In this document: positions 19,829 to 64,000 of the stretch, in pieces
How the letters are laid out: each line of letters opens with the position of its first letter
How positions within the stretch are numbered: position 1 is the stretch's first letter
From: Vicinamibacterales bacterium
GTDB taxonomy: Bacteria > Acidobacteriota > Vicinamibacteria > Vicinamibacterales > UBA2999
NCBI GenBank assembly: GCA_036742665.1
Contig: DAINQP010000003.1
Span: 3,301-67,300, forward strand
DNA length: 64,000 bases
Reading direction: 5' to 3'
The notes under the pieces: model-generated
What the model saw: only the letters and a program-made list of their open reading frames with translations
Told to the model about the DNA's origin: nothing
The model's database searches: none
Position numbers and translations under genes: made by a program

Positions 19829-19841
19829 TCGTAGGCAAGTT

Positions 19842-19856: not shown

Positions 19857-19976
19857 CTGGCGGCCTCCGAAGTCTCGGCGTGCTCGGCAATCGACGGTCG
19901 CACCCACACCCTTCTGGTATAGGCTTAGGCCCCGCGGGCACGATCTCAGCGACTAATTTTCACGGGGAGGACGGTA

Positions 19977-22900
19977 ATGCGGATATTCGTTGCGCGCCTG
20001 ATCGTGCTGGCAGGCGTGCTCCTTCTTCCGGCGTCTGCATTTGCGCAAGCATCGATCGCCGGTACCACCAAAGACGCGTCCGGCGCAGTGCTGCCCGGCG
20101 TCACTGTCGAGGCGTCGAGCCCGGTTCTCATTGAAAAGGTCCGCACGACGGTCAGCGATGACCGCGGCCTCTACCGCATCGTCAACCTGCCGCCCGGCAC
20201 CTACGTTGTGACGTTTACGCTGCAGGGCTTTAACATCGTGAAACGTAACGGGGTCGAGTTGACCGGATCCTTCACCGCAGTGATCGACGCCGACCTCGCG
20301 GTCGGTGGGCTCACCGAAACGATCACCGTGACCGGCGCCTCACCGATCGTCGACGTCACGAGCGTCAGACGTCAAACAACGATCAGCAGTGAGATGCTCA
20401 CATCGATTCCCACTGCGCGCTCGTGGGCGGCGACGGCGCTCTTGATTCCCGGCATCGTGACAATTGGTGGCAGTCCCCCGGACGTCCAGGTGACACCGCA
20501 GATGACGGTGTTCGGCGGCGCTGGCGGACGCAACAACGAAGGCCGCATGCAGGTGGACGGCTTGAACACCGGCGCAGGACTCGGCGGCAGCGGCGTCTCG
20601 ACCTACGTCGCGGATATCTCGAACGCGCAGGAAGTCGTGACGACGACGTCGGGCGGCCTTGGTGAGGCCGAAGTCGGCGGCCCCACGCTCAGCATCATTC
20701 CGAAGAGCGGCGGCAACACGCTCGCCGGCAACATCTATGCGTCTGGAACGGGCGGCGGGATGGTGGGCAGCAACTACAGTCCTGAGCTAGAAGCCGCAGG
20801 GTTGACGACTCCAGGCACGCTGCTCAAACAGTGGGACTTTACGTTCGGCGTGGGAGGCCCCATCCTGAAGGACCGCCTGTGGTATCGCGTTGCGGCCCGG
20901 GACGAAGGACAGCACCGCAAGATTCCCAACATCTACCCCAATCTCAATGCCGGCACGGCCGATAGATTCTATCTGCCCGATCGCACCAAGGAAGTGCGCG
21001 GTGCCGAAAGCTGGCGCTTGTACACGATGCGCCTGACGTTCCAGGCGACGTCGAAAGACAAGATCAACGTTCATTGGGACGAGCAGCACGCGTGCAACGG
21101 CGCGACGTTCAACACCAGTGAGGATGGCTGCCGGCAGCAACCAGACAGCGGCAACCGAATCGGTCCGCTCGGACTCGGCGGACTCAGCCCAACGACGTCA
21201 CCAGAGCTTGGCCAGTATCTCAACGCTCACCCGCGCGTCCGTCAGGTGACGTGGTCGGAAACGGCGACGAACAAGATGCTGTTCGAAGCAGGTTTCGGCG
21301 CGTATCAGGCGCCCTTCGGCCCCTATGAAAGTCCTGGTAATACCACGCGACCGTTTGCGCGCGTCACCGAGCAGTGCGCGGCGGGCTGCACAGCGAATGG
21401 CGGCATCCCCAACCTTACGTATCGCTCGCAGAACTGGTCCGATAGCTGGGACGCGCAGTACACGTGGCGCGCGTCGGTCTCCTACGTGACTGGTGCACAC
21501 AATCTGAAGGTGGGCTACGGCGGTGTCGCGCTGGTGTCGGACCTGCAGGGCTTCACCAACGACAACAACTTGAGCTACACGGTCAACAACGGCGTGCCGA
21601 TCTCGCTGACCCAGAGCCTGCTGCCGTTCACCACGAGCTACCGAACGCGCAACATGTCGATCTTCGTGCAGGATCAGTGGACGCGCGGGCGGATGACGCT
21701 GCAAGGCGCGCTGCGCTTCGATCGCAACTGGAGCAAGTTCCCGGAACAGCGCATCGGCCCGACCAACTTCCTCTCGACCCCGATCGTGTTCCCCGAGACC
21801 GACGGCGTCACTGGCTACAAGGACATCTCACCACGCGGCGGCGTCGCCTATGACCTGTTCGGCAACGGCAAGACCTCGTTGAAGGTGAACTTCGGCAAGT
21901 ATCTCGAGCCGACCAGCAACAACAACAACTACATCCTGTCGAACCCGATCGGCCGCATTGCCACGACCACTTCCCGCTCGTGGACCGACACCAACAACAA
22001 CTTCTTGCCGGACTGCGATTTGAGGAGCCCGGCTGCACAGAGCCCCGCAACGACCGGCTCAGTTGATACCTGCGGTGCGATGAACAGTTCGACGTTCGGC
22101 ACGACGGCGCTGACCACCGCTGCGATCGATCCGAAGATTCTCGAGGGCTGGGGCGTGCGTTCGAACGACTGGCAGATTGGCGTCTCGGTCCAGCAGCAGG
22201 TGCTGCCCCGCGTGTCAGTCGAGGTCGGCTACTTCCGCCGCTGGCTGAACAACTTCACGATCACCGACAACCTGGCGGTGGGTCCGAACGACTTCACCCA
22301 GTACAGCATCACCGCGCCGGCGTATGCGGATCTGCCGGGCGGCGGCAACTACCCCGTGAACGGACTCTACAACGTCGTGCAGGACAAGTTCGGCCAGACG
22401 AGCAACAACATCACGCTCGCTGACGATATCGGCGATCAGTACCAGACCTACAACGGCATGCTGCTCAATGTCAGTGCGAGGCTTGGCCAGGGCCTGCAGT
22501 TCCAGGGCGGCTTCGGCATGGGGAAGACCGTGCAAGACAACTGCGAGGTGCGCGCGCAGGTGCCGGAGTTGACCACGGGCGCGGGCGTCAGCCCCGCGGT
22601 GAACCCGGGCAACCCGTACTGTCACAGCGATCCCGGCCTCATCACGAGAGCCACGGCGCTCGGCAGCTACATCATCCCGAAGATCGACGTGTCGATCGCG
22701 GGAACGCTGCGCAGCGATCAGGGCGGCGTGCTGGCGGCCAACTGGAATGCACCGGTCGCGCTCGTCTCGGCGGCGCTGGGACGTCCGGCCGCGGTCGTCG
22801 GGACGACGGTGCCGATCAACCTCGTGGCGCCCGGCGAAGTCTGGGGCGATCGCGTCAACGCGTTCGATCTGCGATTCGGCAAGATTCTCAGGTTCGGCCG

Positions 22901-23072
22901 CACGCGCTACAACGTCGGGATCGACGTCATCAACGTCACGAACTCAGACGCGACGTTGACGTACAACCAGACGTTCAACACCAACCCGGCCACGCCGGCG
23001 CAGCGCTGGCTCGCGCCGACGTCGGTGCTCACGCCGCGCTTCGTGAAGATCGGCGCGCAGATCGATTTCTAA
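19977..23072 (+). CDS. TonB-dependent receptor-like outer-membrane protein with an N-terminal carboxypeptidase-regulatory-like domain (copy 1)
   Basis: GGGGAGGA lies upstream. The signal peptide ends SAFAQASIAGT. GAVLPGVTVEASSPVLIEKVRTTVSDDRGLYRIVNLPPGTYVVTFTLQGF is the CarboxypepD_reg signature. The 1031-aa product is a beta-barrel ending in KIGAQIDF. Confidence 0.85.
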   Translation: MRIFVARLIVLAGVLLLPASAFAQASIAGTTKDASGAVLPGVTVEASSPVLIEKVRTTVSDDRGLYRIVNLPPGTYVVTFTLQGFNIVKRNGVELTGSFTAVIDADLAVGGLTETITVTGASPIVDVTSVRRQTTISSEMLTSIPTARSWAATALLIPGIVTIGGSPPDVQVTPQMTVFGGAGGRNNEGRMQVDGLNTGAGLGGSGVSTYVADISNAQEVVTTTSGGLGEAEVGGPTLSIIPKSGGNTLAGNIYASGTGGGMVGSNYSPELEAAGLTTPGTLLKQWDFTFGVGGPILKDRLWYRVAARDEGQHRKIPNIYPNLNAGTADRFYLPDRTKEVRGAESWRLYTMRLTFQATSKDKINVHWDEQHACNGATFNTSEDGCRQQPDSGNRIGPLGLGGLSPTTSPELGQYLNAHPRVRQVTWSETATNKMLFEAGFGAYQAPFGPYESPGNTTRPFARVTEQCAAGCTANGGIPNLTYRSQNWSDSWDAQYTWRASVSYVTGAHNLKVGYGGVALVSDLQGFTNDNNLSYTVNNGVPISLTQSLLPFTTSYRTRNMSIFVQDQWTRGRMTLQGALRFDRNWSKFPEQRIGPTNFLSTPIVFPETDGVTGYKDISPRGGVAYDLFGNGKTSLKVNFGKYLEPTSNNNNYILSNPIGRIATTTSRSWTDTNNNFLPDCDLRSPAAQSPATTGSVDTCGAMNSSTFGTTALTTAAIDPKILEGWGVRSNDWQIGVSVQQQVLPRVSVEVGYFRRWLNNFTITDNLAVGPNDFTQYSITAPAYADLPGGGNYPVNGLYNVVQDKFGQTSNNITLADDIGDQYQTYNGMLLNVSARLGQGLQFQGGFGMGKTVQDNCEVRAQVPELTTGAGVSPAVNPGNPYCHSDPGLITRATALGSYIIPKIDVSIAGTLRSDQGGVLAANWNAPVALVSAALGRPAAVVGTTVPINLVAPGEVWGDRVNAFDLRFGKILRFGRTRYNVGIDVINVTNSDATLTYNQTFNTNPATPAQRWLAPTSVLTPRFVKIGAQIDF

Positions 23073-24200: not shown

Positions 24201-25337
24201 TTAGGCAGCTCGCGAAGAATCTCGGCTCTGGAGATATTTCAGGAGGGCCAGTAAGGCAATTTCGTCGCCGTGCAGACCGGCGATTCGCGCCGGCGCCTTC
24301 TTGCGGTTCGACACCACCGCCATCGCTCCGTCACGATAGGCATCCACAACTCCCGGATGCACGTACGACTTGCGGCAGACGGTGGGTGTGTTCCCGAGCA
24401 ATCCGGCGACGGCTTCGAGCGCCGCGTTCACGTGGCGCTCGGTGTCGCGCTTCGTGTCGGGCCGCGGCACGTCGCGCAGCGCGGTCGCCGCCAGCACCGT
24501 GCCCGACCAGGTGCGGAAGTCCTTCGCGGTGAAGTCCTGACCGGTGATCTCCTTCAAGTAGCCGTTGATATCACCTGAGTCCACGACCTGCGCCTCGCCG
24601 GCTTCATCGAGGTATTGAAAGAGCTCCTGCCCCGGCAAGTCACGGCACTGCTTGACGATGCGTGCAAGACGCCGGTCATTGACGCTCACCGAATGGCGCA
24701 CGCCGCTTTTGCCCCGAAACTGGAAGCGCAGCGTGCCACCGTTAACGCGTACGTGACGCGACCGTAGCGTGGTGAGGCCGAACGATTGATTGTGTCGCGC
24801 GTACTCTTCGTTGCCGACGCGAATCAAGCTCTTCTCGAGCAGCTGTACGATCGTCGCAAGCACTTTGTTACGCGGCAGGCCAGGCTGCTCGAGATCGGCG
24901 TTGGTGCGGCGGCGAATCGATGGCAGCACGTCGGCGAAGGTCTGCAAGCGATCGAACTTCGTCTCATCGCGATGCGCGCGCCACGCCGCGTGATACCGAT
25001 ACTGCTTGCGGCCCTTCGCATCGCGCCCGGTCGCTTGAATGTGTCCGCGCTGGTCTGGACAGATCCACACGGTTGTCCATGCGGGTGGCACCGCCAGCGC
25101 ACGAATGCGATCGAGCACAGACGGGTTGCGAATCGCCTTTCCGTCAGCGCCAACGTAGATGAACCCGTCTCCGCACCGCCGGCGCTCGATGCCAGGCTGC
25201 TCATCGCGCACATAGCGAAGTCCGGCCGTCGCCGCTGCGGTAAGCGGACAGGTATCCAGCGGCCGTTTCGTCCGGCTTGCCCTCGGCGAAGTCGAAGGGC
25301 GTCTACGCGACGGTCGGAAGGGGCGAACCCGGCGCAC
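24201..25337 (-). CDS. DNA topoisomerase IB (bacterial poxvirus-type), copy 1
   Basis: Its motifs are GLRYVRDEQPGI, LAVPPAWTTVWICPDQRGHIQATGRDAKGRKQYRYH, FQFRGKSG and the active-site region CRKSYVHPGV. The true start may lie downstream of 25337. Confidence 0.85.
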   Translation of the reverse strand: MRRVRPFRPSRRRPSTSPRASRTKRPLDTCPLTAAATAGLRYVRDEQPGIERRRCGDGFIYVGADGKAIRNPSVLDRIRALAVPPAWTTVWICPDQRGHIQATGRDAKGRKQYRYHAAWRAHRDETKFDRLQTFADVLPSIRRRTNADLEQPGLPRNKVLATIVQLLEKSLIRVGNEEYARHNQSFGLTTLRSRHVRVNGGTLRFQFRGKSGVRHSVSVNDRRLARIVKQCRDLPGQELFQYLDEAGEAQVVDSGDINGYLKEITGQDFTAKDFRTWSGTVLAATALRDVPRPDTKRDTERHVNAALEAVAGLLGNTPTVCRKSYVHPGVVDAYRDGAMAVVSNRKKAPARIAGLHGDEIALLALLKYLQSRDSSRAA

Positions 25338-30618: not shown

Positions 30619-32028
30619 ATGCCGAAGCTGCTTCCGGACCAGACTTTTTACCCGTCGCCGATGATGGCCATGCAGGCGCCGGCGGAGACGGTGGCGTATG
30701 TAGCGCTGCTCAACCCAAACCCGACCGCGAACGACGCGATGGCAGTGCTCGACGTCAATCCAGCATCGCCGGGGTACGGGGCTCAGCTCGCGCGCGTGGA
30801 CATGCCGCGCGCCGGCGACGAACTGCATCACTTTGGATGGAATGCGTGCAGCTCGTGCCTATGCCCGAACTCGCCGCATCCGCACATGCATCGTCGCTAC
30901 CTCGTGGTGCCCGGCATGCGATCGTCGCGGATCCACATCCTCGACACCGCACCCGATCCGCGGCAGCCGACCCTCGTGAAGGTGATCGAGGCCGAGGAGA
31001 TCATCCGGAAGACCGGTTACAGCCGTCCGCACACCGTGCACTGCGGGCCCGACGGCATCTACGTCAACGCGCTCGGCAACGCTGACGGCGACGGCCCCGG
31101 CGGCATCTTCGTGCTCGATCCAGAGACGTTCGAGATTCAAGGTCGCTGGGAGCGCGATCGCGGACCGCAGCACCTGTCGTATGACTTCTGGTGGCATCTC
31201 GGTCACGACACGATGATCACGAGCGAGTGGGGCACGCCGAAGATGGTCGAGGACGGCGTGGTTCCCGAGCTGCTTCTCGGCGGCAAGTACGGCAACTCGC
31301 TGCATGTCTGGGATCTCAACCGTCGCGTGCATCTACAGCGGCTCGAGCTCGGGCCCGAGTATCAGATGGCGCTCGAGCTGCGACCTGCGCACGATCCAAA
31401 CGAGACGTACGGCTTCGTCGGTGTGGTCACGAGTCTGAAGGATCTCTCTGCATCGATCTGGACGTGGTACCGCGAGGGCAATGGCAAGACGGCCTCGTGG
31501 CGCGTTCGCAAGGTGATCGAAATTCCCGCGGAGCCGGCCGCCGCTGACGATCTGCCTCCGCTCCTGAAGGGCTTCGGCGCCGTACCCCCTCTCGTGACCG
31601 ACATCAATCTGTCGTTGGACGATCGGTACCTCTACGTCTCGTGCTTTGGCACCGGCGAATTGAAGCAGTACGACGTCTCCGATCCATTCAACCCGGTGGA
31701 GACCGGCTCGGTGAAGATCGGCGGCATCGTTGGTCGTCAGTCGCATCCGGCGCGTCCGGGAAAGCGACTCAACGGCGCGCCGCAGATGGTCGAGATCAGC
31801 CGCGACGGCAAGCGCGTGTACGTGACCAACTCGCTCTATCGCGCGTGGGACGATCAGTTCTACCCAGAGGGGATCAAGGGTTGGCTGGCCAAACTCGACG
31901 TGCGCGCGAACGGCGGCATTGAGCTCGACCCTGCCGGCTTCGTGGAGTTCGAGACGATGCGTCCGCACCAGGTGCACCTCGAAGGCGGCGACGCAAGCTC
32001 GGACTCGTACTGCTTCTCGCAGACCTAA
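30619..32028 (+). CDS. Selenium-binding protein 56 (SBP56) family protein, putative methanethiol oxidase
   Basis: It shows strong end-to-end resemblance to SELENBP1. Shared motifs include DELHHFGWNACSSCLCP, RRYLVVPGMRSSRIHILD, HTVHCGPDG, YDFWWH, LTDINLSLDDRYLYVSCFGTGELKQYDVSDP, GGAPQMVEISRDGKRVYVTNSLY and GGDASSD. Confidence 0.9.
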   Translation: MPKLLPDQTFYPSPMMAMQAPAETVAYVALLNPNPTANDAMAVLDVNPASPGYGAQLARVDMPRAGDELHHFGWNACSSCLCPNSPHPHMHRRYLVVPGMRSSRIHILDTAPDPRQPTLVKVIEAEEIIRKTGYSRPHTVHCGPDGIYVNALGNADGDGPGGIFVLDPETFEIQGRWERDRGPQHLSYDFWWHLGHDTMITSEWGTPKMVEDGVVPELLLGGKYGNSLHVWDLNRRVHLQRLELGPEYQMALELRPAHDPNETYGFVGVVTSLKDLSASIWTWYREGNGKTASWRVRKVIEIPAEPAAADDLPPLLKGFGAVPPLVTDINLSLDDRYLYVSCFGTGELKQYDVSDPFNPVETGSVKIGGIVGRQSHPARPGKRLNGAPQMVEISRDGKRVYVTNSLYRAWDDQFYPEGIKGWLAKLDVRANGGIELDPAGFVEFETMRPHQVHLEGGDASSDSYCFSQT

Positions 32029-34374: not shown

Positions 34375-34427
34375 GTCGTGTCCGGCTTTAGCCGGACATG
34401 CGATGTCGTGTCCGCCTTCGGGCGGCC
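34375..34427. repeat. Two tandem REP-like hairpin units (type A)
   Basis: GTCGTGTCCGGCTTTAGCCGGACA lies at 34375-34398 and is identical over 24 nt to 55582-55605. The degenerate second unit GTCGTGTCCGCCTTCGGGCGGCC lies at 34405-34427. Confidence 0.6.
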
Positions 34428-42253: not shown

Positions 42254-43624
42254 ATGGACCTTTCGCGCCGACACTTTCTTTTCCTGTCCGCTGCCGCTCT
42301 GCTTCAGCCCGGGAGTGCCGGAACGAAGCGCGACATGATCGTGCGGTCAGCTCGTCCTCTGGATCTCGAGATGCCGATTGAGGGCTTCTCGGACTACATC
42401 ACCCCTATCGACAGGTTCTTCGTTCGCTCGCACGTGTACACGCCGCGCGTGGACATCGGCCAGTGGCGGTTGACGGTTGATGGCGAGGTCGCCAACGCGC
42501 TGACGCTGACGATCGACGACCTGCGACGGATGCCGTCTGTGGAGTTGGTCAGCGTGCTCGAGTGCGCGGGAAACGGACGCGGCTTTTACGAGCCGTCGAT
42601 GCCTGGTCTGCAGTGGGGACACGGCGCAGTCGGCAACGGCCGATGGCGAGGCGTGCGGCTTGCCGATGTGTTGAAGCGTGCTGGATTGAAAACATCGCCG
42701 AAGGAAGTGCTCGTCAACGGCGCCGATACGCCGCTCGGAACCATGCCCGACTTCCAGCGCTCCATTCCAATGGCCAAGGCGTTGCATCCCTCGACACTGC
42801 TTGCCTACGAGATGAATGGCGAGACGCTTCCCGTCGAACATGGCTTCCCGCTTCGCCTCGTCGTTCCAGGCTGGGCCGGTGACTCGTGGATCAAGTGGGT
42901 CACGTCCATGTCGGTGCTGAACCGCGAGCACGATGGCTTTTGGATGGCGCGCGCGTATCGTCATCCAGGAAAGCCTGTGGAGCCGGGCGTTGCAGTTCCT
43001 CCAGACCAGATGCAGCCGGTCACCAGCCTGCGGGTGAAAAGCGTCATCGCCCGGCCCCGCAGCGATCGTGGGCCGTCGAGTGCCGCCGTCGGCGAGGTAC
43101 TCACCATCAGCGGCGCGGCGTGGAGCGGCGACGCGGGTCCGGTGACATCTGTTGACGTCAGCGTTGATGCGGGCCGCACGTGGAAAGCCGCCATACTGCG
43201 ACGTGAGCGTACCGAATTCGGCTGGCGGCTCTGGGAGTACGAGTGGCGACCGCAACGCGAGGCCTATTACACAGTCCTCGCGCGCGCGGGTGATGCGGCC
43301 GGCAATACACAGCCGTTGGAGCAGGAGTGGAATCCCTCGGGTTATGTGTGGAACGTCGTCCCACGCGTCGGGATCAATGTCGGCGCGACAACCCGCGTCC
43401 AGCCGAGTGCACGAGAACAAGCATTCAACGGTCCTCCCGAGGGTTTTAAGACCTCGTGCCTGGCGTGCCACGACCCGGATGTCATCGAACAGCAGCGTCT
43501 CACGCGGCCGCAGTGGGATGCCGAGATCAACAAGATGGTCGGCTGGGGTGCGAAGGTCTCCGATCAGGATCGCAGCGCGCTGCTCGACTACGTTGCCGCG
43601 CGCTACGGTCCGCGACGTCGCTAA
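42254..43624 (+). CDS. Tat-signal sulfite-oxidase-family molybdopterin oxidoreductase fused to a C-terminal c-type haem domain
   Basis: MDLSRRHFLFLSAAALL is the twin-arginine signal. VLECAGNGR carries the Mo-ligand Cys motif. The C-terminus reads CLACHDPDVIEQQRLTRPQWDAEINKMVGWGAKVSDQDRSALLDYVAARYG (CxxCH). Confidence 0.85.
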   Translation: MDLSRRHFLFLSAAALLQPGSAGTKRDMIVRSARPLDLEMPIEGFSDYITPIDRFFVRSHVYTPRVDIGQWRLTVDGEVANALTLTIDDLRRMPSVELVSVLECAGNGRGFYEPSMPGLQWGHGAVGNGRWRGVRLADVLKRAGLKTSPKEVLVNGADTPLGTMPDFQRSIPMAKALHPSTLLAYEMNGETLPVEHGFPLRLVVPGWAGDSWIKWVTSMSVLNREHDGFWMARAYRHPGKPVEPGVAVPPDQMQPVTSLRVKSVIARPRSDRGPSSAAVGEVLTISGAAWSGDAGPVTSVDVSVDAGRTWKAAILRRERTEFGWRLWEYEWRPQREAYYTVLARAGDAAGNTQPLEQEWNPSGYVWNVVPRVGINVGATTRVQPSAREQAFNGPPEGFKTSCLACHDPDVIEQQRLTRPQWDAEINKMVGWGAKVSDQDRSALLDYVAARYGPRRR

Positions 43625-49172: not shown

Positions 49173-49904
49173 TTAGCGAGCCGAACACGGGGTGGGATTC
49201 CACCCCGTCGCATCGGCGAGCTTCTTGAAGTCCGAGCTCGTCGTATAAGAGCGCGCGAAATACTGCGGGTCCTCGACCTTGGTAATGACAGTCAGCCAGC
49301 GGTCGCCGTTCGGCAGCTCATTGAGGTCCCAATACTCGGTAACGGTCGCCTTCTCGCTGTACGGCGCGCCGTTCTTCCGCACGTAGCCCGGACGCAGATT
49401 CGTGGTGACCACCTTGAGATTGCGCGCGGGAATGTTCCACTGCGCGACCGAGTGTCCCTGCCAACTGGCTTCAGACGGAGGCGACGGGGTTCCGAAACGA
49501 AGCATGCGGGTCTGAGTACCGGTATCGGTTTCCACCTTCAGCGTCGTATCGTCCTGCCACGAGATGCGAAGACGGCCTGGCAGACGCATGATTCCGCCGG
49601 CTCCGTAGGCGCGGCATTGCTCCCCTGCCGCTTCATCCTTCGCCGGATCCCAGCTCTCGCCGAGCTTGCGGCCTTCGGCATTGAGCGGGACGGCATCGAA
49701 GACGCCTTTCGCGGGCGTCACCATTCGATACTTCCAGTCTTCGACAATCGGCGAGACCCAATAGCCGGCGAGATCGATCGGTGCCGCCTGGCGAGGCGTG
49801 AGGGCCGGACCACCGGCTCGGCCGCGACCGCCGGCGCGCTGTGCGTCGAGAGAAAGCGAGCATGCGAGGACGCCGCACGTCGTGAGCAACAGGATTCGAT
49901 TCAC
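49173..49904 (-). CDS. Exported protein of unknown function ('DLxGxW' family, short member)
   Basis: The GTG start at 49904 overlaps the upstream TAG by 1 nt (TAGTG). It has a signal peptide. Motifs are IDLAGYWVS, WQGHSVAQW...LKVVTTNLRPGY, ATVTEYW and VEDPQYF. Confidence 0.7.
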   Translation of the reverse strand: MNRILLLTTCGVLACSLSLDAQRAGGRGRAGGPALTPRQAAPIDLAGYWVSPIVEDWKYRMVTPAKGVFDAVPLNAEGRKLGESWDPAKDEAAGEQCRAYGAGGIMRLPGRLRISWQDDTTLKVETDTGTQTRMLRFGTPSPPSEASWQGHSVAQWNIPARNLKVVTTNLRPGYVRKNGAPYSEKATVTEYWDLNELPNGDRWLTVITKVEDPQYFARSYTTSSDFKKLADATGWNPTPCSAR

Positions 49905-50296
49905 TAATCAACGACCTCGTTTGTGCCGCGACCCCACGTGAAGCCATCCGATGGACGCGTGAGGTTGATCATCAACACGCGATACTCGCCCGGCACCCGC
50001 GAGGGCCGTCCACTGATCACCACCTTGTCGCCCACCTTTAGCGAATCGCGTTTGACACCGGCGGCGGCCAGCTGCGTGGTGCCACCCCACTCGATGGCCC
50101 AGCGCTGCGAGACGCCGCTCGCGTCAGGCGCGTCGATGTGGACGAATGAGTGCGGATTCCGATACACGAACTGGACGATGCTGCCTTCGAGCGTGATGGA
50201 CTTGCCGGTCTCGTAGGTCGCGGCAAACGAGTGGTGGGCGAATGACGTCGAGGCGGTCAGCACGGCGGCAATGGTTATCAGCAGGAGTGTGCGCAT
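49904..50296 (-). CDS. DUF6152-like small exported protein, copy 3
   Basis: ATG 50296 gives MRTLLLITIAAVLTASTSFA|HHSFAATYE...NPHSFVHIDA...WAIEWGG...GDKVVISG. The 30-codon track extension would translate a REP element (GPAEAGHY..EAGHY). Confidence 0.75.
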   Translation of the reverse strand: MRTLLLITIAAVLTASTSFAHHSFAATYETGKSITLEGSIVQFVYRNPHSFVHIDAPDASGVSQRWAIEWGGTTQLAAAGVKRDSLKVGDKVVISGRPSRVPGEYRVLMINLTRPSDGFTWGRGTNEVVD

Positions 50297-50308
50297 CGCT
50301 TTCCTCGC

Positions 50309-50359
50309 GTAGTGTCCGGCTTCAGTGGCCCTCTGGTAGTGTCCGGCTTCAGCCGGACC
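50309..50359. repeat. Two tandem REP-like units (type A variant) in an intercistronic spacer
   Basis: GTAGTGTCCGGCTTCAGTGGCC lies at 50309-50330. GTAGTGTCCGGCTTCAGCCGGACC lies at 50336-50359, with the hairpin GTCCGGC-TTCA-GCCGGAC. Confidence 0.6.
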
Positions 50360-50360
50360 T

Positions 50361-52358
50361 TCAGAGCGTCTTGTAGACCGCCTCAATAAACATGTTCGTC
50401 GTCCAGGGGCCGGTGGTGGCGCCGTAGCGTCCGTCGAAGTCCAGCGTCGGGCGCGCGGCCTTCACCTGCTCGAGCGTCTTACCCTGCTTCTTGAGGTCGC
50501 GGATTCGGTCGCGGATCATCACCAGCATGTTGCGATAGGAGGCGACGTCGGCCGTATCCGACAAACGTCCGCGACCCGGGACGATCCACGTGCCGCCCTG
50601 TGAGCGGTACTCTGCCACCGACAGATCGAGGATCTCATTGAGACCGTCGATGACGCCCTGAATCGTGCCGCCATTCGTCGTGTCGACGAGCGGATAACTG
50701 ATCGTCGAGAACAGGTTACCGGCTGCTATGACTTCCGAGTGACGGAAGAAGACGAAGCTGTCGCTATCCGTGTTGGCCGCCTTCGCGTGATAGAGGATCA
50801 CCGGCTCGCCGTTCACATACTCCGACAGCTTGTAAAAGGCATCGAAGAAGGTGTCAACGGGCCACGCCGCTTCGGGCGCCGCCGCGGCCCTATTCGCCGG
50901 CGTGCTCATCGCCGTCAAGACACCGTCATGGGCAACGATCGTCGCCGCAGTCCCAATCTCGCGCACAGCGCTGCCGAATCCACCAGCGCCGCCCGCGCGT
51001 CGGAAGTTCGCCGAAGCGGCCAGCTTCTCGTTGCCACCGACGTGCTCAGGTGCCGCGCTGGTGTTGATGATGTAGCGGATCGGCCGTGCGGGCCGAGGCG
51101 ACGCGACGACCGCATTGAAGTAGGGACTCGACCAGCTCGGCATCCCCGGACAGTTCGCGCCAAAGCACGTGTTCGTCGCGGGAGGACTCACGACTGATCT
51201 GGCCAGCTCGGTCAACGCCGCGAGAACCTTGTCGGTCATCTGCGCCGAACCGGTGTTGACGATGGCGATGCCGTCGCGGCCGACCGACGCGGTGATGTTC
51301 GTGCCGTCGGCAATCAGGATGTAGACGTTGCCCTGTACCGGCATGACATGGACTTGTCCGTCTCGCGGGCTCTGATCGGCAATGCGCCTGGCGACATCGT
51401 TCGCTGTCTTCGAAACCGGCACCGTCAGGGTGTTCACCGTCGCGCTCTTGGCGAGCACTGCCCGGTACTCCGGATAGATCGTCTTCACGCCACCACGGAT
51501 CGGTTCGAATGGAATCCACGACTGCGTCTTGAGGAACTCGCCGATGCCACTGTTCTGCCCCGGCAGGAAATGCGGCACCCAGTGGCGATCGCGTCCGCCG
51601 TTCTCGGCAAATGACGACCCGCTGCAGTTCTCAGTCGCCGGTCCCGCATTCGGATCGTAGGTGTAGGTGATCGACAGTACGTACGGCTCGTCGAGATAGA
51701 TCGGGTCGTCCACCACCTGCAGAATCGACAGGACGTCGTCGTGGCGGGTGATGTACTCCGTCATCGTCAGCATGTCGGACGTTTGCGGTCCGCCGCGGCG
51801 CAAGTAGCCGTCCTTCAAATGCGTCGTCGTGACCTTCAGCGTCTGACCGATCCATTCGCCGGTGGAGAACCCGCTCCAACTGTGCGGCGCCCACGCCGGT
51901 GGATGTGGACGACCATCGACGAAGATCGGGCGGTCCAGCGAGCGCATGAACTGCACGCGGTAGCCGACGATCTCCCGCGAGATCGGATCGAGATCTTTGA
52001 GAATTCGTGCACCGCCAACGCCGCGCCACTGGTGCGGTGCCGAGTGCGGGCGGCACTGATACTCTGGCGTGCCCCAGATCGATTCGGGTGTGGTGTCGGC
52101 GCGGAGACGTCCCGCCTCGTTGAGCGCGAGACCGAGATAGTCGGCGAGTGGCGGTTGTCCGGGGTCTTCGTTGCTGTCCAGCCGCCATTCTCCGGCGATG
52201 TCGGGTGGCCGCGCACCGCCGCCCTGGGCGGACACACGGAAACTGACCGCAGTGGCGATGGCGAGCGCAAGGAGCACGACCGCCGATCGACTCGCGGACC
52301 CTCGCTCAGGGCAGGCCCGTCGAATTGCAGGCGCTCGCTCATGACAGGCTGGACGCAT
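50361..52358 (-). CDS. Exported fusion protein: 'DLxGxW' family N-domain plus a degenerate metallo-beta-lactamase-fold C-domain
   Basis: ATG 52358 gives a signal peptide ending FRVSAQGG. The N-domain carries DIAGEWRLD, FVDGRPHP, FSTGEWIGQTLKVTTTHL, LTMTEYI and VDDPIYL. In the C-domain, IINTSAAPEHVGGN stands where MBLs have NTHxHxDHxGGN, and AANTDSDS stands where they have GHTxGD. Confidence 0.7.
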   Translation of the reverse strand: MRPACHERAPAIRRACPERGSASRSAVVLLALAIATAVSFRVSAQGGGARPPDIAGEWRLDSNEDPGQPPLADYLGLALNEAGRLRADTTPESIWGTPEYQCRPHSAPHQWRGVGGARILKDLDPISREIVGYRVQFMRSLDRPIFVDGRPHPPAWAPHSWSGFSTGEWIGQTLKVTTTHLKDGYLRRGGPQTSDMLTMTEYITRHDDVLSILQVVDDPIYLDEPYVLSITYTYDPNAGPATENCSGSSFAENGGRDRHWVPHFLPGQNSGIGEFLKTQSWIPFEPIRGGVKTIYPEYRAVLAKSATVNTLTVPVSKTANDVARRIADQSPRDGQVHVMPVQGNVYILIADGTNITASVGRDGIAIVNTGSAQMTDKVLAALTELARSVVSPPATNTCFGANCPGMPSWSSPYFNAVVASPRPARPIRYIINTSAAPEHVGGNEKLAASANFRRAGGAGGFGSAVREIGTAATIVAHDGVLTAMSTPANRAAAAPEAAWPVDTFFDAFYKLSEYVNGEPVILYHAKAANTDSDSFVFFRHSEVIAAGNLFSTISYPLVDTTNGGTIQGVIDGLNEILDLSVAEYRSQGGTWIVPGRGRLSDTADVASYRNMLVMIRDRIRDLKKQGKTLEQVKAARPTLDFDGRYGATTGPWTTNMFIEAVYKTL

Positions 52359-52465
52359 GGTGCGCCGATTATCACTCAAGAAGCGAGCAAATGTGCCTTT
52401 CACGCGTTTACGTGGCTTGACTTTGCGGTGAGGGCGGGATGGAATGCGCCCGTTTGGGAGCATCA

Positions 52466-55400
52466 ATGACCACATCACACATGTCCGCCTTCGTACGAAC
52501 GCTGCTGTGCTCGGCGCTCTGCCTCGGTCTTCCGTCTTTCGTCTTCGCGCAATCCATCGCCGGCACCGTGCGCGACACGTCCGGAGCCGTCCTGCCGGGT
52601 GTCTCCGTAGAAGCCGCGAGTCCAGCACTCATCGAAAAGACGCGGTCGGTCGTCACCGACGCGAACGGTCAGTTTCAGATCATCGACCTTCGTCCAGGCA
52701 CCTACACCGTCACGTTCACGCTGCAGGGATTCACGACCGTTGCGCGGCAGAACCTCGAACTGAGCGGCGGTGGCGTGACGACGGTGAACGGGGAAATGCG
52801 GGTGGGTGGCATTCAGGAAACACTCACGGTCACCGGCGACGCGCCGGTCGTTGACATCCAGACCAGCACCAGTCGTGAGCAGGTGTTGAGCAACGACTTC
52901 GTGCGCGCGCTGCCTGCCTCGCGCGGCTACGGCAACTATCTCGCCGGCGTGCCCGGGATTCAGGGCACGGGACTTGGCGCGAGCGCAACGCCCTCGAACA
53001 ACTTCTTCACGGCACGCGGCGGACGCAGCAGCGAAGGCAACATTCAGATCGATGGCATGAACGTCGGCTCGTCGGTCGGCGGCGGCGGTGTGTCGGGCTA
53101 TCAGTACGACATGTCGAACGCCTCCGAGGTGCAGGTCACCATCGCCGGCGGCCTTGCGGAAGTCGATCGCGGCGGTCCGGCATTCAACATGATTCCGAAG
53201 ACCGGCGGCAACACGTTCAGCGGGTTCTACTTTGCGAGCCTCGCCGGCAAGTGGTCGCAAGGCAGCAACATCGACGCCGAGCTGGAAAGCTATGGGTTCG
53301 TTGACCAGTCGGCGCTGATTCGCAACTGGGACACAAACTTCGCGTTCAGCGGACCAATCCTGCACGACAAAATCTGGTTCTTCGCCAACGCCCGGACCAT
53401 TGGCACGTATCAGGACGTGCCGAACCAGTACGGGAACCTGAATGCGGACAATCCGAATTCGTGGGCCTACGCGCGCGACACCAGCGTGCACGTGCGGAAC
53501 TCCAATTCCAAGAAAGTCATCGCCACACGCCTCACATATCAGGCCACGCCGCGCAACAAGCTCGGGTTCTACGTTGATTACACCAAGAACTGCTCCGGCG
53601 GGTCGTACGCGCCAGACAGCGGTCAATGCCGCTCGCCCGGAGACGGCTGGACGGCGTCGGGTCCTGGCATCGGCCCTGGCGTGCCCACTTCGTCGCCGGA
53701 GTCGGGAACGATCTGGGACCATCCCGCGAAGATCATGCAGGCCACCTACTCGGCGCCGTGGACGAACCGCATCCTCGTCGAAGCGGGCTTCTCCTCGTTC
53801 TGGACCGAGTGGGGCGACATTCGTCCGGAGGGTGCTGCGGTCGATCGGATCGCGGTCACCGAGCAGCTCTCGAACGACCTCACCCAGACGCCCAACTCGA
53901 ACTTCATCTATCACGGCTGGCCGGCCACCTCGGGCACCATTCAGCAGAACGCGCAGTATCGCGCGTCCCTCTCATATGTGACGGGCGCGCATAGCTTCAA
54001 GGCCGGCTATCAGGGCGCGTTGATGATCGCCAAGACGCCGAGCTTCCTCGGTCAGCAGATTAGCTACCGTTTCAACAATGGTGTGCCCAATCAGTTGACA
54101 CAGCGCGTCGGACCCACGCTGACAAGCAACCGAACGTTGCCCGACGCCTTCTTCGTCCAGGATCAGTGGACGAGGTCGCGACTGACGGTGCAAGGCGGCC
54201 TGCGCTACGAGCACGTGCACAGCTATTTCCCGGAGGGCGAGAACGGCGTCATCGAGGCGCATCGTTTCGGGCCCGCGTTCATCTTCCCGAAAACCACCGG
54301 TGTGCGCGGCTACAACGACATCACGCCCCGGATGGGCGCGTCCTACGACCTGTTCGGCAACGGCAAGACGGCGCTGAAAGTCAGCATGAGCAAGTACCTG
54401 CAGGCGGCATTCAATGGTGACGCGTACACGATCAACAACCCCGCGGTCACGCTCCAGCAGACGACCAGCCGTGGATGGACCGATTCCAATCAGAACTTCG
54501 TCGCCGAATGCGATTTCATGAATCCCGCCGCCAATGGTGAATGCCAGGCGTGGACCAACTTGAACTGGGGACAGCAGGGCCAGACGACGGCGGTCAATCC
54601 CGACGTGCAGGAAGGCTGGGGCAAACGCAACTGGGACTGGCAGTTCAGCGCCGGCATTCAGCACGAGCTGATTCCACGCGTGTCGCTCGATGTGAGCTAC
54701 AGCCGCCGGTCGTGGGGCAACTTCTTCGTCACCCACAATCGCGCGCTGACAGCGAACGACTATGACGAGGTCACGCTGACGGCGCCCAGCGATCCTCGTC
54801 TGCCGGGTGGCGGCGGCTATCCGGTGACTTTCCTCGCACGCAACAACAACTCCCTGCTGGGCGCGACCGATCCGTATTACACGTCGACGGCGGATTTCGG
54901 CGACCAGACGAACTACTGGCAAGGTGTGGACGTGTCCGTGAATGCGCGGATGAACAACGGCCTGACCTTCCAGGGAGGCACCAGCAGCGGACGAGGCTAC
55001 AGCGACACGTGCGACGTACTCGTCGGACGCTACGGCAGGCCGATGACGCCGAGTACCGCAACCGTCGCAGCAGCCGGCGTGATCGACGGGCAACCGGCGT
55101 GCAGCGCCGGCGAGCCGTGGCTCACCACCGTCCGCGGCCTCGCGTCGTACACCATCCCCAAGGTTGATGTGCTCGTCAGCGCGATCTTCCGCTCGCAGGC
55201 CAACGTCCAGCCGGGCGCCGACGTCGGGACCAACGGCGCCTCCCGATCGGCGAATTTCGTGATGACGGCAGCACAATTCCTGACTGCCACCGGGCGGCCA
55301 CTGCGCACCGGGGTCACCAGCGAAACCGTCAACATCCTGATGCCGGGAGAGATCTACGGTGATCGGGTGAACAACCTCGACATGCGCGTCGCGAAGGTCC

Positions 55401-55579
55401 TGCGTTTTGGCGGCACGCGCGCGAACGTCGGCGTCGACTTCTACAACCTCACGAACGGGAACACAGGCACAACGTTCGAAGCGGCCTACGATCCGGCCAC
55501 GATGGGCGGGCGGTGGTTGCGGCCGACGGCAGTGCTGCAGCCACGGTTTGTACGGTTCAACGTGCAATTCGATTTCTAG
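52466..55579 (+). CDS. TonB-dependent receptor-like outer-membrane protein with an N-terminal carboxypeptidase-regulatory-like domain (copy 2)
   Basis: GGGAG lies 5 nt upstream of ATG 52466. The signal peptide ends SFVFAQSIAGT. GAVLPGVSVEAASPALIEKTRSVVTDANGQFQIIDLRPGTYTVTFTLQGF matches copy 1. The product ends in RFNVQFDF. Confidence 0.85.
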   Translation: MTTSHMSAFVRTLLCSALCLGLPSFVFAQSIAGTVRDTSGAVLPGVSVEAASPALIEKTRSVVTDANGQFQIIDLRPGTYTVTFTLQGFTTVARQNLELSGGGVTTVNGEMRVGGIQETLTVTGDAPVVDIQTSTSREQVLSNDFVRALPASRGYGNYLAGVPGIQGTGLGASATPSNNFFTARGGRSSEGNIQIDGMNVGSSVGGGGVSGYQYDMSNASEVQVTIAGGLAEVDRGGPAFNMIPKTGGNTFSGFYFASLAGKWSQGSNIDAELESYGFVDQSALIRNWDTNFAFSGPILHDKIWFFANARTIGTYQDVPNQYGNLNADNPNSWAYARDTSVHVRNSNSKKVIATRLTYQATPRNKLGFYVDYTKNCSGGSYAPDSGQCRSPGDGWTASGPGIGPGVPTSSPESGTIWDHPAKIMQATYSAPWTNRILVEAGFSSFWTEWGDIRPEGAAVDRIAVTEQLSNDLTQTPNSNFIYHGWPATSGTIQQNAQYRASLSYVTGAHSFKAGYQGALMIAKTPSFLGQQISYRFNNGVPNQLTQRVGPTLTSNRTLPDAFFVQDQWTRSRLTVQGGLRYEHVHSYFPEGENGVIEAHRFGPAFIFPKTTGVRGYNDITPRMGASYDLFGNGKTALKVSMSKYLQAAFNGDAYTINNPAVTLQQTTSRGWTDSNQNFVAECDFMNPAANGECQAWTNLNWGQQGQTTAVNPDVQEGWGKRNWDWQFSAGIQHELIPRVSLDVSYSRRSWGNFFVTHNRALTANDYDEVTLTAPSDPRLPGGGGYPVTFLARNNNSLLGATDPYYTSTADFGDQTNYWQGVDVSVNARMNNGLTFQGGTSSGRGYSDTCDVLVGRYGRPMTPSTATVAAAGVIDGQPACSAGEPWLTTVRGLASYTIPKVDVLVSAIFRSQANVQPGADVGTNGASRSANFVMTAAQFLTATGRPLRTGVTSETVNILMPGEIYGDRVNNLDMRVAKVLRFGGTRANVGVDFYNLTNGNTGTTFEAAYDPATMGGRWLRPTAVLQPRFVRFNVQFDF

Positions 55580-55580: not shown

Positions 55581-55610
55581 TGTCGTGTCCGGCTTTAGCC
55601 GGACACGACA
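55581..55610. repeat. REP-like hairpin (type A), 13-bp perfect stem, directly after the receptor stop
   Basis: TGTCGTGTCCGGC-TTTA-GCCGGACACGACA. It may double as a terminator. Confidence 0.6.
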
Positions 55611-58393: not shown

Positions 58394-58948
58394 GTGAACC
58401 ACGAGAACCCAATCCGCGTCCTGGCGATTTCCGGCAGCCTTCGACGAACATCCTCGAACAGTGCGCTTGTCAGAGCTGTCGCTCGGCTCGCGCCCAAATC
58501 AGTGAAAGTGTTCATTTACTCGGAATTGGCGTCTGTTCCGCCGTTCAATCCGGACCTCGACGGAGAGACGGCCCCCGACGCGGTGACCCGATTCCGGCTT
58601 GCGCTACAGGCGTGCGATGCAATCGTGATATCGAGCCCCGAGTACGCCCACGGAGTGCCCGGTGTTCTGAAGAATGCGCTGGACTGGGTGGTCGCCAGCG
58701 GTGAGCTGATCGAGATGCCGGTCGCTCTGATCAACACGTCCGAGCGTGCAGTTCATGCGTGGGAGTCGCTGGCCGAAACGCTGGGCGTGATGTCGGCGCA
58801 CGTGCTGCTCGATGCGTCGATCACCGTCCCGCTCGGCGGCAGAACGCTCGATGCGGACGGGATCGTTGCGGATGCAGCGATTGCCACAGCATTGAGGCGT
58901 GCGATCGACGTGCTCGCGGCCGAGGCACGTGAGGGACGGGCGGCCTAA
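58394..58948 (+). CDS. NAD(P)H-dependent FMN reductase
   Basis: It has a GTG start. Motifs are IRVLAISGSLRRTSSNSAL and VISSPEYAHGVPGVLKNALDW. Confidence 0.85.
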   Translation: MNHENPIRVLAISGSLRRTSSNSALVRAVARLAPKSVKVFIYSELASVPPFNPDLDGETAPDAVTRFRLALQACDAIVISSPEYAHGVPGVLKNALDWVVASGELIEMPVALINTSERAVHAWESLAETLGVMSAHVLLDASITVPLGGRTLDADGIVADAAIATALRRAIDVLAAEAREGRAA

Positions 58949-62853: not shown

Positions 62854-64000
62854 TTAGAACGACAAGGTCGCGTTGAACCGCGCCAGCCGCGGGTTCAGAA
62901 TGGCTGTTGGATTTAGCCACGTCGTCCCGTTGTTCGAGTACAAGAACGTCTGTTCGTAAGTCGTAATGGTGTTCGAGTTGAACAGGTTGTAGAGGTCGAA
63001 CCCGACGTCGAGCCGCCGGCCGCCGAATCGCATGATCTTGGCGAGCCGGATGTCCACTTCGGTGCGTCGTTCGAGTGGATACAGCTCGCTCGGCGCCAGT
63101 AGATTGACCGTCGTGGTCTGGGCAGCCGATGCGCCAGCCGGCAGGCGACCGAGCAACGTTTGCACGACCGTATTCGGAATCTGGTAGTTGCCATTGAGCG
63201 ACGTGCCGTTGCTGGCGTTCTCGCTCGCCGTGGTTCGCGTCGATCGAATCGTCGTACTGGCGAGGACGTCGATCTTCGGGATGGAGTACGACGCCAGTCC
63301 GCGGACGGCGGTGAGCCAGGGTTCGGTCACGTCGCAGCCATCGAGGCGCTGCGCAGTCGTACCAGAAATCGAGAACTGCGGACGCGCTTCCCACAGAGCG
63401 CAGGTGTTTCGCACGCCGCGACCGGTCGACGTACCCATCTGCACCGTCAACCTGTTGGCGAAACGGGCCGTCGCGTTCATGTCCACGCCGTGCCAGTATG
63501 CGGTGCGAGTCTCACCGGCAACGGTCTCTTCCTTCGTCTGGAAGTTTCGCGAGCCGCGCGCCGATGCCGCGGGCGTAATCGCCACGAACGAGGCCGTCGC
63601 ACCGGCATTCGCCAGTTCGGGATGGTTCGGCACGGGAACCGTCCAGACGTCGTAGTCGTTCGCACCGACGAGCTCGTTGTAGGTGACGTTGAAGTTGCCC
63701 CAATGGCGACGGTTGTAGCCGGCGTCTACCGAGATGCCGGGTCGCACCTCGTGCTGAATCGACGCGCCGTAGCGCCAGTTGTACGGCCGCACGCCCCAGC
63801 CGCTCAAAAGCGCCGGATCCACTCTGGTCGTATTCGGATCGGTATTGCCGAAGTTCAGGTTTGCGCCGGTGAGCGTACCGCAGACGTCGCCGCCAGTCGT
63901 GCTGGTGTCCTGCGCGGCTGGACTCAGCAGGTTGCAATCGACGGCGAAATTGCCGTTCGAGTCGGTCCACGCACGGTTGGTGACCGTCCGGACGAAGTTT
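62854..64000 (-). CDS. TonB-dependent receptor-like outer-membrane protein (copy 3), C-terminal ~380 codons; 5' end lies beyond the right window edge
   Basis: The track shows only 62854-63822. Hand translation of 63823-63999 in the same frame stays open and reads NFVRTVTNRAWTDSNGNFAVDCNLLSPAAQDTSTTGGDVCG. This aligns with copy 1 (SRSWTDTNNNFLPDCDLRSPAAQSPATTGSVDTCG). The product ends in RFNATLSF. Confidence 0.8.
   Translation of the reverse strand, partial: NFVRTVTNRAWTDSNGNFAVDCNLLSPAAQDTSTTGGDVCGTLTGANLNFGNTDPNTTRVDPALLSGWGVRPYNWRYGASIQHEVRPGISVDAGYNRRHWGNFNVTYNELVGANDYDVWTVPVPNHPELANAGATASFVAITPAASARGSRNFQTKEETVAGETRTAYWHGVDMNATARFANRLTVQMGTSTGRGVRNTCALWEARPQFSISGTTAQRLDGCDVTEPWLTAVRGLASYSIPKIDVLASTTIRSTRTTASENASNGTSLNGNYQIPNTVVQTLLGRLPAGASAAQTTTVNLLAPSELYPLERRTEVDIRLAKIMRFGGRRLDVGFDLYNLFNSNTITTYEQTFLYSNNGTTWLNPTAILNPRLARFNATLSF

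Follow-up and report, generated by a model that had tools for sequence, protein, structure and literature searches.

Here we show that a stretch of Vicinamibacterales DNA of 64,000 nucleotides (nt) with a G+C content of 63%, hereafter the window, carries an exported, co-inherited and partly fused module that is built from three components: proteins of the DL (or DLxGxW) family, a degenerate metallo-beta-lactamase (MBL)-like domain, and small proteins of the family DUF6152. A TonB-dependent receptor is a facultative neighbour of this module, which probably marks an undescribed periplasmic system for the handling of a metal or a substrate. The DL family is a definition from this analysis and is not present in Pfam.

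In the window, the module takes the form of three genes on the minus strand, A, B and C, which diverge from a receptor gene. Gene A (50361-52358) encodes a protein of 665 amino acids (aa), counted from the ATG at 52358, that consists of a signal peptide, a DL domain (residues ~46-262, nt 51573-52223), a linker and an MBL-fold domain (residues ~330-665). Public gene calls give a protein of 638 aa that starts 27 codons later, at a GTG at 52277; the upstream ATG, with its MRP- start, is common to the orthologous loci L003 and L004 (L-numbers are labels of the related loci that were compared with the window). The orthologues of gene A in Vicinamibacterales are 78-100% identical. Gene B (49904-50296) encodes a DUF6152 protein of 130 aa (Pfam E-value 1.4e-24), with a signal peptide ending in ...TSFA and a mature part starting with HHSF, and gene C (49173-49904) encodes a short DL protein (243 aa) that has a signal peptide and in which the pair Cys97/Cys240 is invariant. 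The TAG stop codon of gene B and the GTG start codon of gene C overlap by one base at 49904 (TA-G-TG), and the spacer between gene A and the receptor gene (52466-55579, plus strand) spans exactly 107 bp (52359-52465). A preliminary description of this region had reported the four open reading frames (ORFs), the TAGTG coupling and a divergent spacer of about 107 bp, all of which we found as claimed. The trio A-B-C is retained in L001, L002 and most of the 80 genome loci described below. Together, these comparisons show that the three genes constitute a conserved operon for proteins that are predicted to be Sec-exported and to cooperate, with a putative physical partnership between DUF6152 and DL as its core.

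Two sets of loci were used to analyze the module outside the window. The DUF6152-centred set contains 80 loci, one genome per species, that were obtained by scanning with a DUF6152 alignment and that come from Vicinamibacterales, Terriglobia, Bryobacterales, one gammaproteobacterial metagenome-assembled genome (MAG) and one 'Acidimicrobiia' MAG; their ORFs were searched with hidden Markov models (HMMs) built for this analysis. The DL-centred set stems from an independent scan of metagenome contigs in which a 364-aa DL subfamily, described below, served as query. Pooled neighbour counts refer to both sets together, i.e., 160 loci. The loci were sampled by sequence patterns, with a bias toward close relatives, and genes were called by a simple combination of ORFs and third-codon-position G+C content (GC3), with frameshifts in some MAGs derived from nanopore reads. 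All adjacency tests count related genomes as independent and, hence, the p-values given below are optimistic.

Several lines of evidence support the link between DUF6152 and the DL family. Firstly, nearly every DUF6152 gene of the gene B type (copy 3 of the window) in the 80 loci stands in the order DL-long, MBL, DUF6152, DL-short. A DL or MBL neighbour was found for 37 of the 43 central DUF6152 genes with full flanks, and also for 27 of 42 additional DUF6152 paralogues that had not been selected by the search. Secondly, DUF6152 accounts for 8 of the 122 flanking genes in the DL-centred set versus none of the 201 other genes (p 4e-4), and all eight of these DUF6152 genes adjoin a DL gene. Thirdly, the components are fused in more than one way. 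DL-long and MBL form one polypeptide in the window and in most Vicinamibacterales-type loci, and are separate adjacent genes with their own signal peptides in L043, L047, L049, L063, L068 and L076. DUF6152 itself is fused to DL in L038 (10862-12292), L067 (6058-7359), L071 (6103-7359) and L160 (6722-7780), where an N-terminal DUF6152 part with a signal peptide is followed by a Pro-rich linker and a C-terminal DL core, the DLxGxW part being absent. Finally, the pair recurs in gene sets of cultured Alphaproteobacteria. A plasmid of Croceibacterium atlanticum carries, on one strand, the genes for DUF6152, DUF6152, DL, a TonB-dependent receptor and MarR; on a plasmid of Novosphingobium humi a DL and a DUF6152 gene overlap by 4 nt beside two DUF6644 genes; and Sphingobium sp. 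TomTYG65 has the order DL-DUF6152-DL-DUF6152 opposite two small unannotated genes and a TonB receptor. The preliminary description had interpreted the recurrence of the two families within the window as a functional link rather than chance, and had made this depend on their being enriched next to each other elsewhere. The adjacency counts, the fusions and the alphaproteobacterial gene sets all support this interpretation.

The kinship of the three DL proteins of the window, on which the same description had also staked its argument, is significant in profile-profile comparisons. Alignment of orthologue profiles with hhalign gave a probability of 98.9% for the C type versus the A type (E 1.1e-17, 179 columns), and of 95.4% for the C type versus the type of the 364-aa protein encoded at 13162-14256 on the plus strand (E 1.9e-8, 154 columns). 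In BLASTP searches the 243-aa gene C protein matched the N-terminus of the 665-aa gene A protein with an E-value of 8e-14, and the 364-aa protein matched the proteins of genes A and C with E-values of 2e-8 and 0.058, respectively. Common to all three are a signal peptide, an N-terminal D[LI]xGxW motif and a core with the pattern GxSxGxW...TLxVxT...TE...DP. Each type has its own conserved Cys pair (C97/C240, C102/C245 and C179/C318), which would fit an oxidising extracytoplasmic location. The 364-aa protein represents a distinct subfamily, with the motifs WGxPDLxGxW, DRCITRG, YEMVHDTR, GDSRGHWEGxTLVV and CHEGN, that has at least 582 relatives in metagenome contigs; its additional conserved His, Glu and Cys motifs (YEMVHDTR, CHEGN) are absent from the A and C types, whose DL domains contain no invariant catalytic residues. 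A profile of the three window DL domains matched 11,183 cluster representatives (50% identity) at E <=1e-3, 4,046 of them at E <=1e-10. Searches of Pfam with ten DL proteins at E-values up to 10 gave nothing meaningful, there being no model for the DL domain, and sequence and profile searches of the chains in the PDB with the fusion protein and the DL family gave no relative. The names in the ten DL family clusters that we checked are all 'hypothetical protein' or generic MBL hydrolase. Thus, the DL domain constitutes a large, uncatalogued, beta-rich exported family.

The three DUF6152 proteins of the window, which had been described as DUF6152-like, score 86.4, 72.0 and 66.3 bits with the Pfam model (PF19649), all above its gathering score of 27 bits. 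All three share a mature N-terminus of the form A|HHS, an NPH motif, a Trp and a Glu; in gene B the invariant residues are H21, H22, H49 (in NPH), W66 and E69. These features are conserved throughout the family. Among 120 DUF6152 sequences, the Ala or Gly that immediately precedes the His pair and the second His are present in all 120, the first His, the His of NPH and the Trp in 118 each, and the Glu in 112. Small residues at positions -1 and -3 constitute the signal-peptidase I rule. DUF6152 fits this rule: all of 117 sequences carry Ala or Gly at position -1, and 116 of them have a small or aliphatic residue at position -3. The mature protein is therefore predicted to begin, most likely, with His-His. 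The AlphaFold2 (AF2) model of DUF6152 has a mean confidence (pLDDT, the predicted local distance difference test) of 83.6 and shows a barrel of five to six strands with one helix, the N-terminal segment having a pLDDT of 54-75. Its best structural matches in the PDB are OB folds (SSB and the anticodon-binding domain of LysRS; E ~1e-3, template-modelling (TM) score ~0.47), and these matches are so weak that only the fold class can be taken to be in common. No mention of DUF6152 was found in the literature that we searched.

The third component, the C-terminal domain of gene A, had been described as MBL-like. Profiles confirm the relationship to the MBL fold, with the qualification that the domain is a degenerate version with a pseudo-site. 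The model TIGR04559 matches the C-terminal half of gene A with an E-value of 1.8e-9 and 37.4 bits, far below its curated cut-off of 280 bits. PF00753 is matched by 10 of 72 relatives, the window protein not being among those recognized by Pfam itself. A profile that includes the gene A domain matches the structure 8d2z (4.5e-10), chlorothalonil dehalogenase (Chd) and class B enzymes, the first two being the nearest structures for the family. Class B MBLs bind zinc through a defined ligand scheme, by which we assigned the ligand positions from their spacing. In gene A motif 2 reads SAAPEH in place of HxHxDH, the His of motif 3 is replaced by Asn, the Asp of motif 4 by Asn and the His of motif 5 by Arg; thus, other residues (S, A, N, N, R) occupy five of the seven zinc-ligand positions, and one Glu and one His are left. 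This loss is conserved among the 53 orthologues, and the domain is therefore best regarded as a predicted pseudo-site, and not as a beta-lactamase or a canonical zinc hydrolase.

Comparison of the related loci revealed three classes of MBL domains. The canonical class, with HxHxDH / H / D / H, is found in DL-MBL-DL units that lack DUF6152 (L036, L053, L055, L056, L079, L045, L060 and L062). These canonical relatives are closest to TIGR04559 and TIGR04558 (SoxH-related) and to the class B core, all below the cut-offs; the L053 domain, for instance, matches TIGR04559 with an E-value of 1e-26 and 94.1 bits, under the required 280. In the second class, comprising Terriglobia MBLs that are followed by DUF6152, the ligands read S-x-[LA]-x-D-H / [IS] / D / H; Zn1, the three-His site, has thus disappeared, and Zn2 retains its Asp-His-Asp-His set. 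The third class, the fused form of Vicinamibacterales that includes the window, has lost Zn1 and half of Zn2 (SAAPEH / N / N / R). One of the eight complete canonical MBLs is adjacent to DUF6152 and seven are not; DUF6152 follows only 1 of 12 MBLs with both motif-2 histidines versus 44 of 60 without them (Fisher p 4e-5, a value that reflects few evolutionary events and carries no correction for phylogeny). These three ligand classes suggest that the DUF6152 module descends from an active DL-MBL-DL hydrolase unit, in which DUF6152 would have been inserted between MBL and DL-short while the zinc ligands decayed.

The receptor encoded next to gene A (copy 2) has the architecture CarboxypepD_reg, Plug (PF07715) and OMP_b-brl_4 (PF25183), which it shares with a second receptor of the window (copy 1, 19977-23072, plus strand); the two are 41% identical over their full length. 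Yet another TonB-dependent receptor, the third of this subtype (62854-64000, minus strand), is cut off by the end of the window; it matches the others with an HMM E-value of ~1e-143, and Pfam finds nothing in its 322-aa ORF fragment. In the genome loci, receptors account for 20 of the 234 module-flanking genes versus 15 of the 688 other genes (odds ratio 4.2, p 7e-5), and a receptor is directly adjacent in 17 of 79 loci (~22%). In the pooled sets the figures are 25 of 355 versus 21 of 900 (odds ratio 3.2, p 1.7e-4). The DL-centred set by itself shows no significant enrichment. The divergent arrangement of the window recurs in L003-L005, and clusters with a receptor on the same strand are present in L008, L036, L038, L073 and L074, of which L036 and L074 are canonical-MBL units in one-strand clusters. 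The enrichment of DUF6152 next to TonB-dependent receptors, which the preliminary description had also anticipated, is thus present and weaker than that with DL, and the receptor link is real but optional. The possibility that the module is served by one dedicated receptor lineage was discarded: the adjacent receptors share 25-40% identity with each of the two window receptors and are no closer to them than non-adjacent ones.

The 107-bp spacer contains sequence blocks that may be promoters. Directed at the receptor gene are TTGACT (52417-52422, plus strand) and, 17 nt further, TGGAAT (52440-52445), together with GGGAG; directed at gene A is GATAAT (52373-52368, minus strand), 9 nt ahead of its ATG, which would give a near-leaderless mRNA. 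Between the two promoter-like blocks lies an imperfect palindrome, CACGCGTTTACGTG (52401-52414). These blocks (TTGACT-17 nt-TGGAAT, GATAAT and the palindrome) are kept in the orthologous spacers of L003, L004 and L005, and it is from this conservation in three spacers that we infer their promoter role; a scan of the region for the sigma-70 consensus found no site by the rule of the scan. The orthologous spacers have a TTGAYA-like -35 element at 17-18 nt from the -10 element, where the window has an 18-bp deletion. A short intergenic element, CT[GA]AAGCCGGACAC[TG]AC, occurs six times in the window at <=3 mismatches versus 0.12 expected, with copies at 34375-34421, 50309-50352 and 55582-55609. 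Two perfect direct copies, 27 nt apart, lie in the spacer that separates gene A from gene B, and an inverted, overlapping pair lies directly past the stop codon of receptor copy 2. The element looks like a REP-type (repetitive extragenic palindromic) repeat or a transcript-end hairpin.

The two other DUF6152 genes of the window lie at 13-20 kb. The preliminary description had them sitting together with a DL gene at 13-18 kb, near a receptor of the same subtype. Both families are indeed present there, but the organisation differs from that of the A-B-C operon. A same-strand run consists of the gene for the 364-aa DL protein, a gene for an exported SRPBCC/Polyketide_cyc2-like protein (14304-14912, plus strand; PF10604 E 7.7e-6, just below the cut-off), DUF6152 copy 1 (14920-15390, plus strand; mature HHSH, Pfam E 4.4e-20) and a gene for an exported protein of 224 aa (15437-16111, plus strand), so that the SRPBCC-like gene separates DL from DUF6152. 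The 224-aa protein, directly after DUF6152 copy 1, has no Pfam or NCBIfam match and belongs to a family that we designate E. The run is followed by an opposite-strand cytochrome c gene (16130-17203, minus strand; weak C-terminal cytochrome c'-like match), a gene for a 241-aa paralogue of the E family (17184-17909, plus strand), DUF6152 copy 2 (17881-18300, plus strand; mature HHSH, Pfam E 2.6e-18), a B12-binding radical SAM gene (18326-19909, minus strand; distant HpnR/BchE-type matches far below the cut-offs), receptor copy 1 and an SGL-type gene. Thus, both DUF6152 genes of this locus directly adjoin E-family genes, not DL genes. Neither the SRPBCC-like gene nor the E family figured in the preliminary description. 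The two E-family proteins, both without a match in Pfam or NCBIfam, are 39% identical (E 4e-49); that they are distant relatives of DL was considered and rejected (hhalign 0.6%). An E-family gene also abuts DUF6152 in L039, and therefore DUF6152 appears to be a common small partner of several exported families. Other genes of the window for which no link with the module was found encode a protein of the SBP56 family (selenium-binding/methanethiol-oxidase type; 30619-32028, plus strand, E 2e-187), a sulfite-oxidase-type molybdopterin oxidoreductase (42254-43624, plus strand) and an NADPH-dependent flavin mononucleotide (FMN) reductase (58394-58948, plus strand). The window also encodes a bacterial type IB DNA topoisomerase (Topoisom_I and Top1B_N_bact; 24201-25337, minus strand).

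What might the module do? The reading that we prefer, and that we put forward tentatively, is that it is a periplasmic module for the capture or relay of a metal downstream of the TonB-dependent receptor. DUF6152 would capture a transition-metal ion or a metal-bearing ligand through its N-terminal amine and imidazoles, His49 and Glu69; the DL domains would be docking and binding scaffolds; and the ligand-less MBL fold would act as a receiving or holding partner instead of a zinc hydrolase. In other lineages DUF6152 might hand over to small DUF6644 membrane proteins instead. DUF6644-like membrane proteins are neighbours in 13 of the 160 loci. They have ~160 aa and, according to their consensus, about four predicted transmembrane helices; in L044 DUF6644 is fused to DUF2231. 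They are found next to DUF6152 genes that have no DL neighbour, at times with DUF2231 (Bryobacteraceae, Caballeronia, Azospirillum brasilense Sp7), and the pair is present in L044, L051, L058, L065 and L069, in L163, L164, L167, L168 and L169, and also in N. humi.

Several observations weigh against a role in metal handling. No DUF6644 gene was found in the window. Neither a metal-sensing regulator (Fur, Zur, NikR, CsoR or ArsR type) nor a known metal transporter is recurrent beside the module, the regulators near it being of the GntR, MarR, TetR and LysR types and response regulators. The most recurrent enzyme neighbours, pyrroloquinoline quinone (PQQ) enzymes, esterases and other hydrolases, fit an organic substrate equally well. 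On the structural side, the fusion protein and the DL family show no sequence homology to solved structures. The AF2 model of the 665-aa protein has a pLDDT of 40 and gives no usable fold for DL, because the alignment of 53 orthologues with 78-100% identity is too shallow. CusF is a periplasmic OB-fold metallochaperone for Cu(I)/Ag(I) that has its site, which includes a Trp, on the face of the barrel and that works with a resistance-nodulation-division (RND) efflux pump; DUF6152 as a homologue of CusF was rejected (hhalign 1.8%), which leaves a fold analogy only.

Some of these observations lead to a different view, which we consider possible and less probable than metal handling: the module may process or relay, in the periplasm, an organic substrate imported by the receptor, as a relative of the 'quinoprotein relay system'. 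DL would bind the compound, an intact MBL would hydrolyse it, and DUF6152 would be a carrier or redox accessory to PQQ dehydrogenases and c-type cytochromes. This view is favoured by the best family matches of the MBL domain, TIGR04559/TIGR04558 (E 1e-26 in the case of L053), and by the neighbourhoods. PQQ-type dehydrogenases (PF01011 type and GSDH) occur within 10 kb in 26 of the 160 loci and account for 14 of the 355 flanking versus 14 of the 900 other genes (odds ratio 2.6, p 0.017). The order cytochrome c, PQQ enzyme, DUF6152 is found in L078 and a direct PQQ-DL arrangement in L111, L126 and L155, and the 13-18 kb locus of the window contains a cytochrome c gene. Other recurrent neighbours in the 160 loci are c-type cytochromes, esterases, further MBL genes, LysR-type regulators and response regulators. 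Nearby genes of the SRPBCC, esterase and lactonase-like kinds, as well as regulators of types that sense small molecules, would fit an organic compound. On the other hand, the DUF6152-linked MBL cannot be a canonical zinc hydrolase, gene A reaches only 37 bits with TIGR04559 versus the cut-off of 280, the PQQ enrichment is weak and uncorrected, no PQQ dehydrogenase is present among the scanned genes of the window, and the invariant N-terminal His-His is left unexplained.

One locus outside the two sets has a special gene content, which was seen in none of the 160 others. In L166 (Sphingobium sp. TomTYG65, AP027331.1 293835-310056) the module and a TonB receptor lie amid organosulfur genes, which encode two NtaA/DmoA monooxygenases, two SsuA-type binding proteins, TauD, SsuD and a rhodanese. 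Organosulfur uptake as a general role was rejected: no homologues of the L166 NtaA/DmoA, SsuA, TauD and SsuD proteins were found among 1,704 genes of the 160 other loci.

A third view dispenses with both transport and catalysis: the proteins would form a structural or stress complex of the envelope, and the adjacency of receptors would be a by-product of a very high density of receptor genes in these genomes. The low frequency of adjacent receptors (~22% of the loci), the lack of a significant enrichment in the DL-centred set, the pseudo-enzyme nature of the MBL and the A- and C-type DL domains without invariant catalytic residues are all compatible with this. We regard it as unlikely, however, in view of the receptor enrichment, which holds against the genes of the same loci (odds ratio 3.2-4.2), of the single-strand cluster with a receptor that is repeated in Alphaproteobacteria, and of the one-strand clusters of canonical-MBL units and receptors in L036 and L074.

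A bolder possibility, and a slightly less likely one again, is a split metal centre: the N-terminal arm of DUF6152 would lie in the cleft of the MBL and replace the lost ligands in trans. The DL domains would then hold DUF6152 and MBL together, and the result would be a two-protein metalloenzyme or a metal-transfer station. Behind this possibility are the loss of the three-His Zn1 site, the intact Zn2 site in Terriglobia, and the three invariant His residues, two of them N-terminal, that are added by DUF6152, whose gene always neighbours those of these MBLs.

It is improbable that the module serves cofactor scavenging, in which the receptor would import PQQ or a similar cofactor and DL and DUF6152 would pass it on to apo-enzymes of the periplasm. 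The module often has PQQ enzymes beside it, and some of these contain a D-Y-D motif (...WDYDG..., ...VDYDS...), namely PQQ alcohol-dehydrogenase-type proteins encoded beside DL or DUF6152 genes in L067 (4249-6039), L071 (4154-5944) and L078 (8125-9792); we take this motif to be the signature of lanthanide-dependent XoxF/ExaF-type enzymes. Against this, 134 of the 160 loci have no PQQ enzyme nearby, a His-rich site would be unexpected for PQQ or lanthanides, and the receptors, which are of the acidobacterial CarboxypepD_reg architecture, do not form one lineage where they adjoin the module. TonB-dependent import of PQQ, by PqqU, is known and widespread (PMC12124388).

Finally, chance adjacency of abundant families, which could be invoked as the DL family is very large and often has several copies per locus, is refuted by the adjacency statistics, the two kinds of fusion, the overlapping stop and start codons and the recurrence in two phyla.

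The module is of interest whichever of these readings applies. The DL family comprises 11,183 clusters of exported proteins for which there is neither a Pfam model nor a PDB structure, and the module is abundant in soil Acidobacteria, which are among the commonest and least tractable bacteria of soil. The module is also present in culturable Sphingomonads, Azospirillum and Caballeronia, and therefore the question is open to genetics and biochemistry. If metal relay is its role, the trafficking of metals in the periplasm, downstream of TonB-dependent receptors, would gain a new fold as well as a new partner system. If the metal site is split, it would represent a new way of building a metal centre, undescribed for the MBL superfamily. 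Under either of these two readings, the MBL fold, which lost its zinc ligands stepwise as DUF6152 arrived, clearly exemplifies how a pseudo-enzyme evolves.

Comparison with known systems places DUF6152 closest to small metal binders of the cell envelope. Experiments on DUF4198, DUF6702 and the anglerases have shown that secreted metal binders are marked by a conserved His at the start of the mature chain, by neighbouring TonB receptors and by hand-over to small permeases (PMC12537917). Like DUF4198, which binds nickel, DUF6702 and the anglerases, DUF6152 is small and exported and has, by prediction, a conserved His directly after the cleavage site as well as further conserved candidate ligand residues. 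Their gene neighbourhoods contain TonB receptors and small permeases, as is the case near DUF6152, and their proposed role is capture and hand-over, not catalysis. The differences are that DUF6152 is an OB barrel and not a beta-sandwich, that there is no sequence relationship, that DUF6152 is absent from the study describing them (PMC12537917), and that its obligatory DL partner has no counterpart among DUF4198, DUF6702 and the anglerases.

The same N-terminal-His logic is known from YcnI-YcnJ (PMC12362106) and from CopC-CopD and the histidine brace (PMC8424229, PMC10952591). In the copper acquisition pairs CopC-CopD and YcnI-YcnJ an N-terminal His, which provides amine and imidazole, is combined with a second His, and the membrane partner that receives the metal is encoded next door, an arrangement that resembles the DUF6152-DUF6644 pair. 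DUF6152 differs from CopC and YcnI in its fold and in having two adjacent N-terminal His residues together with the NPH His, Glu and Trp. Neither homology nor a shared fold with members of the histidine-brace group (CopC, YcnI, lytic polysaccharide monooxygenases (LPMO), DUF4198) was found, the only Pfam match being DUF6152 itself. Unlike CopC-CopD, the window module has no membrane partner. With CusF, DUF6152 has in common that it is a small periplasmic protein with an OB fold and a Trp; no conserved Met ligands are present in the 120 DUF6152 sequences, however, and CusF is tied to RND efflux, not to uptake.

For the MBL component, the nearest counterparts are the SoxH-related metallohydrolases of the 'quinoprotein relay', TIGR04558 and TIGR04559, which are uncharacterised and are listed in the ped cluster (PMC12997753). 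They resemble the MBL of the module in being exported proteins of MBL fold whose genes lie close to those for PQQ dehydrogenases and c-type cytochromes, a setting that several of the related loci share. Gene A differs from them in that it lacks zinc ligands, is fused to DL and is partnered by DUF6152, and in that it scores far below their cut-offs; neither DL nor DUF6152 belongs to the relay system as described. With the class B metallo-beta-lactamases gene A shares an alignable fold and the order of the motifs, and its DL-MBL-DL relatives have in addition kept the ligands HxHxDH, H, D and H.

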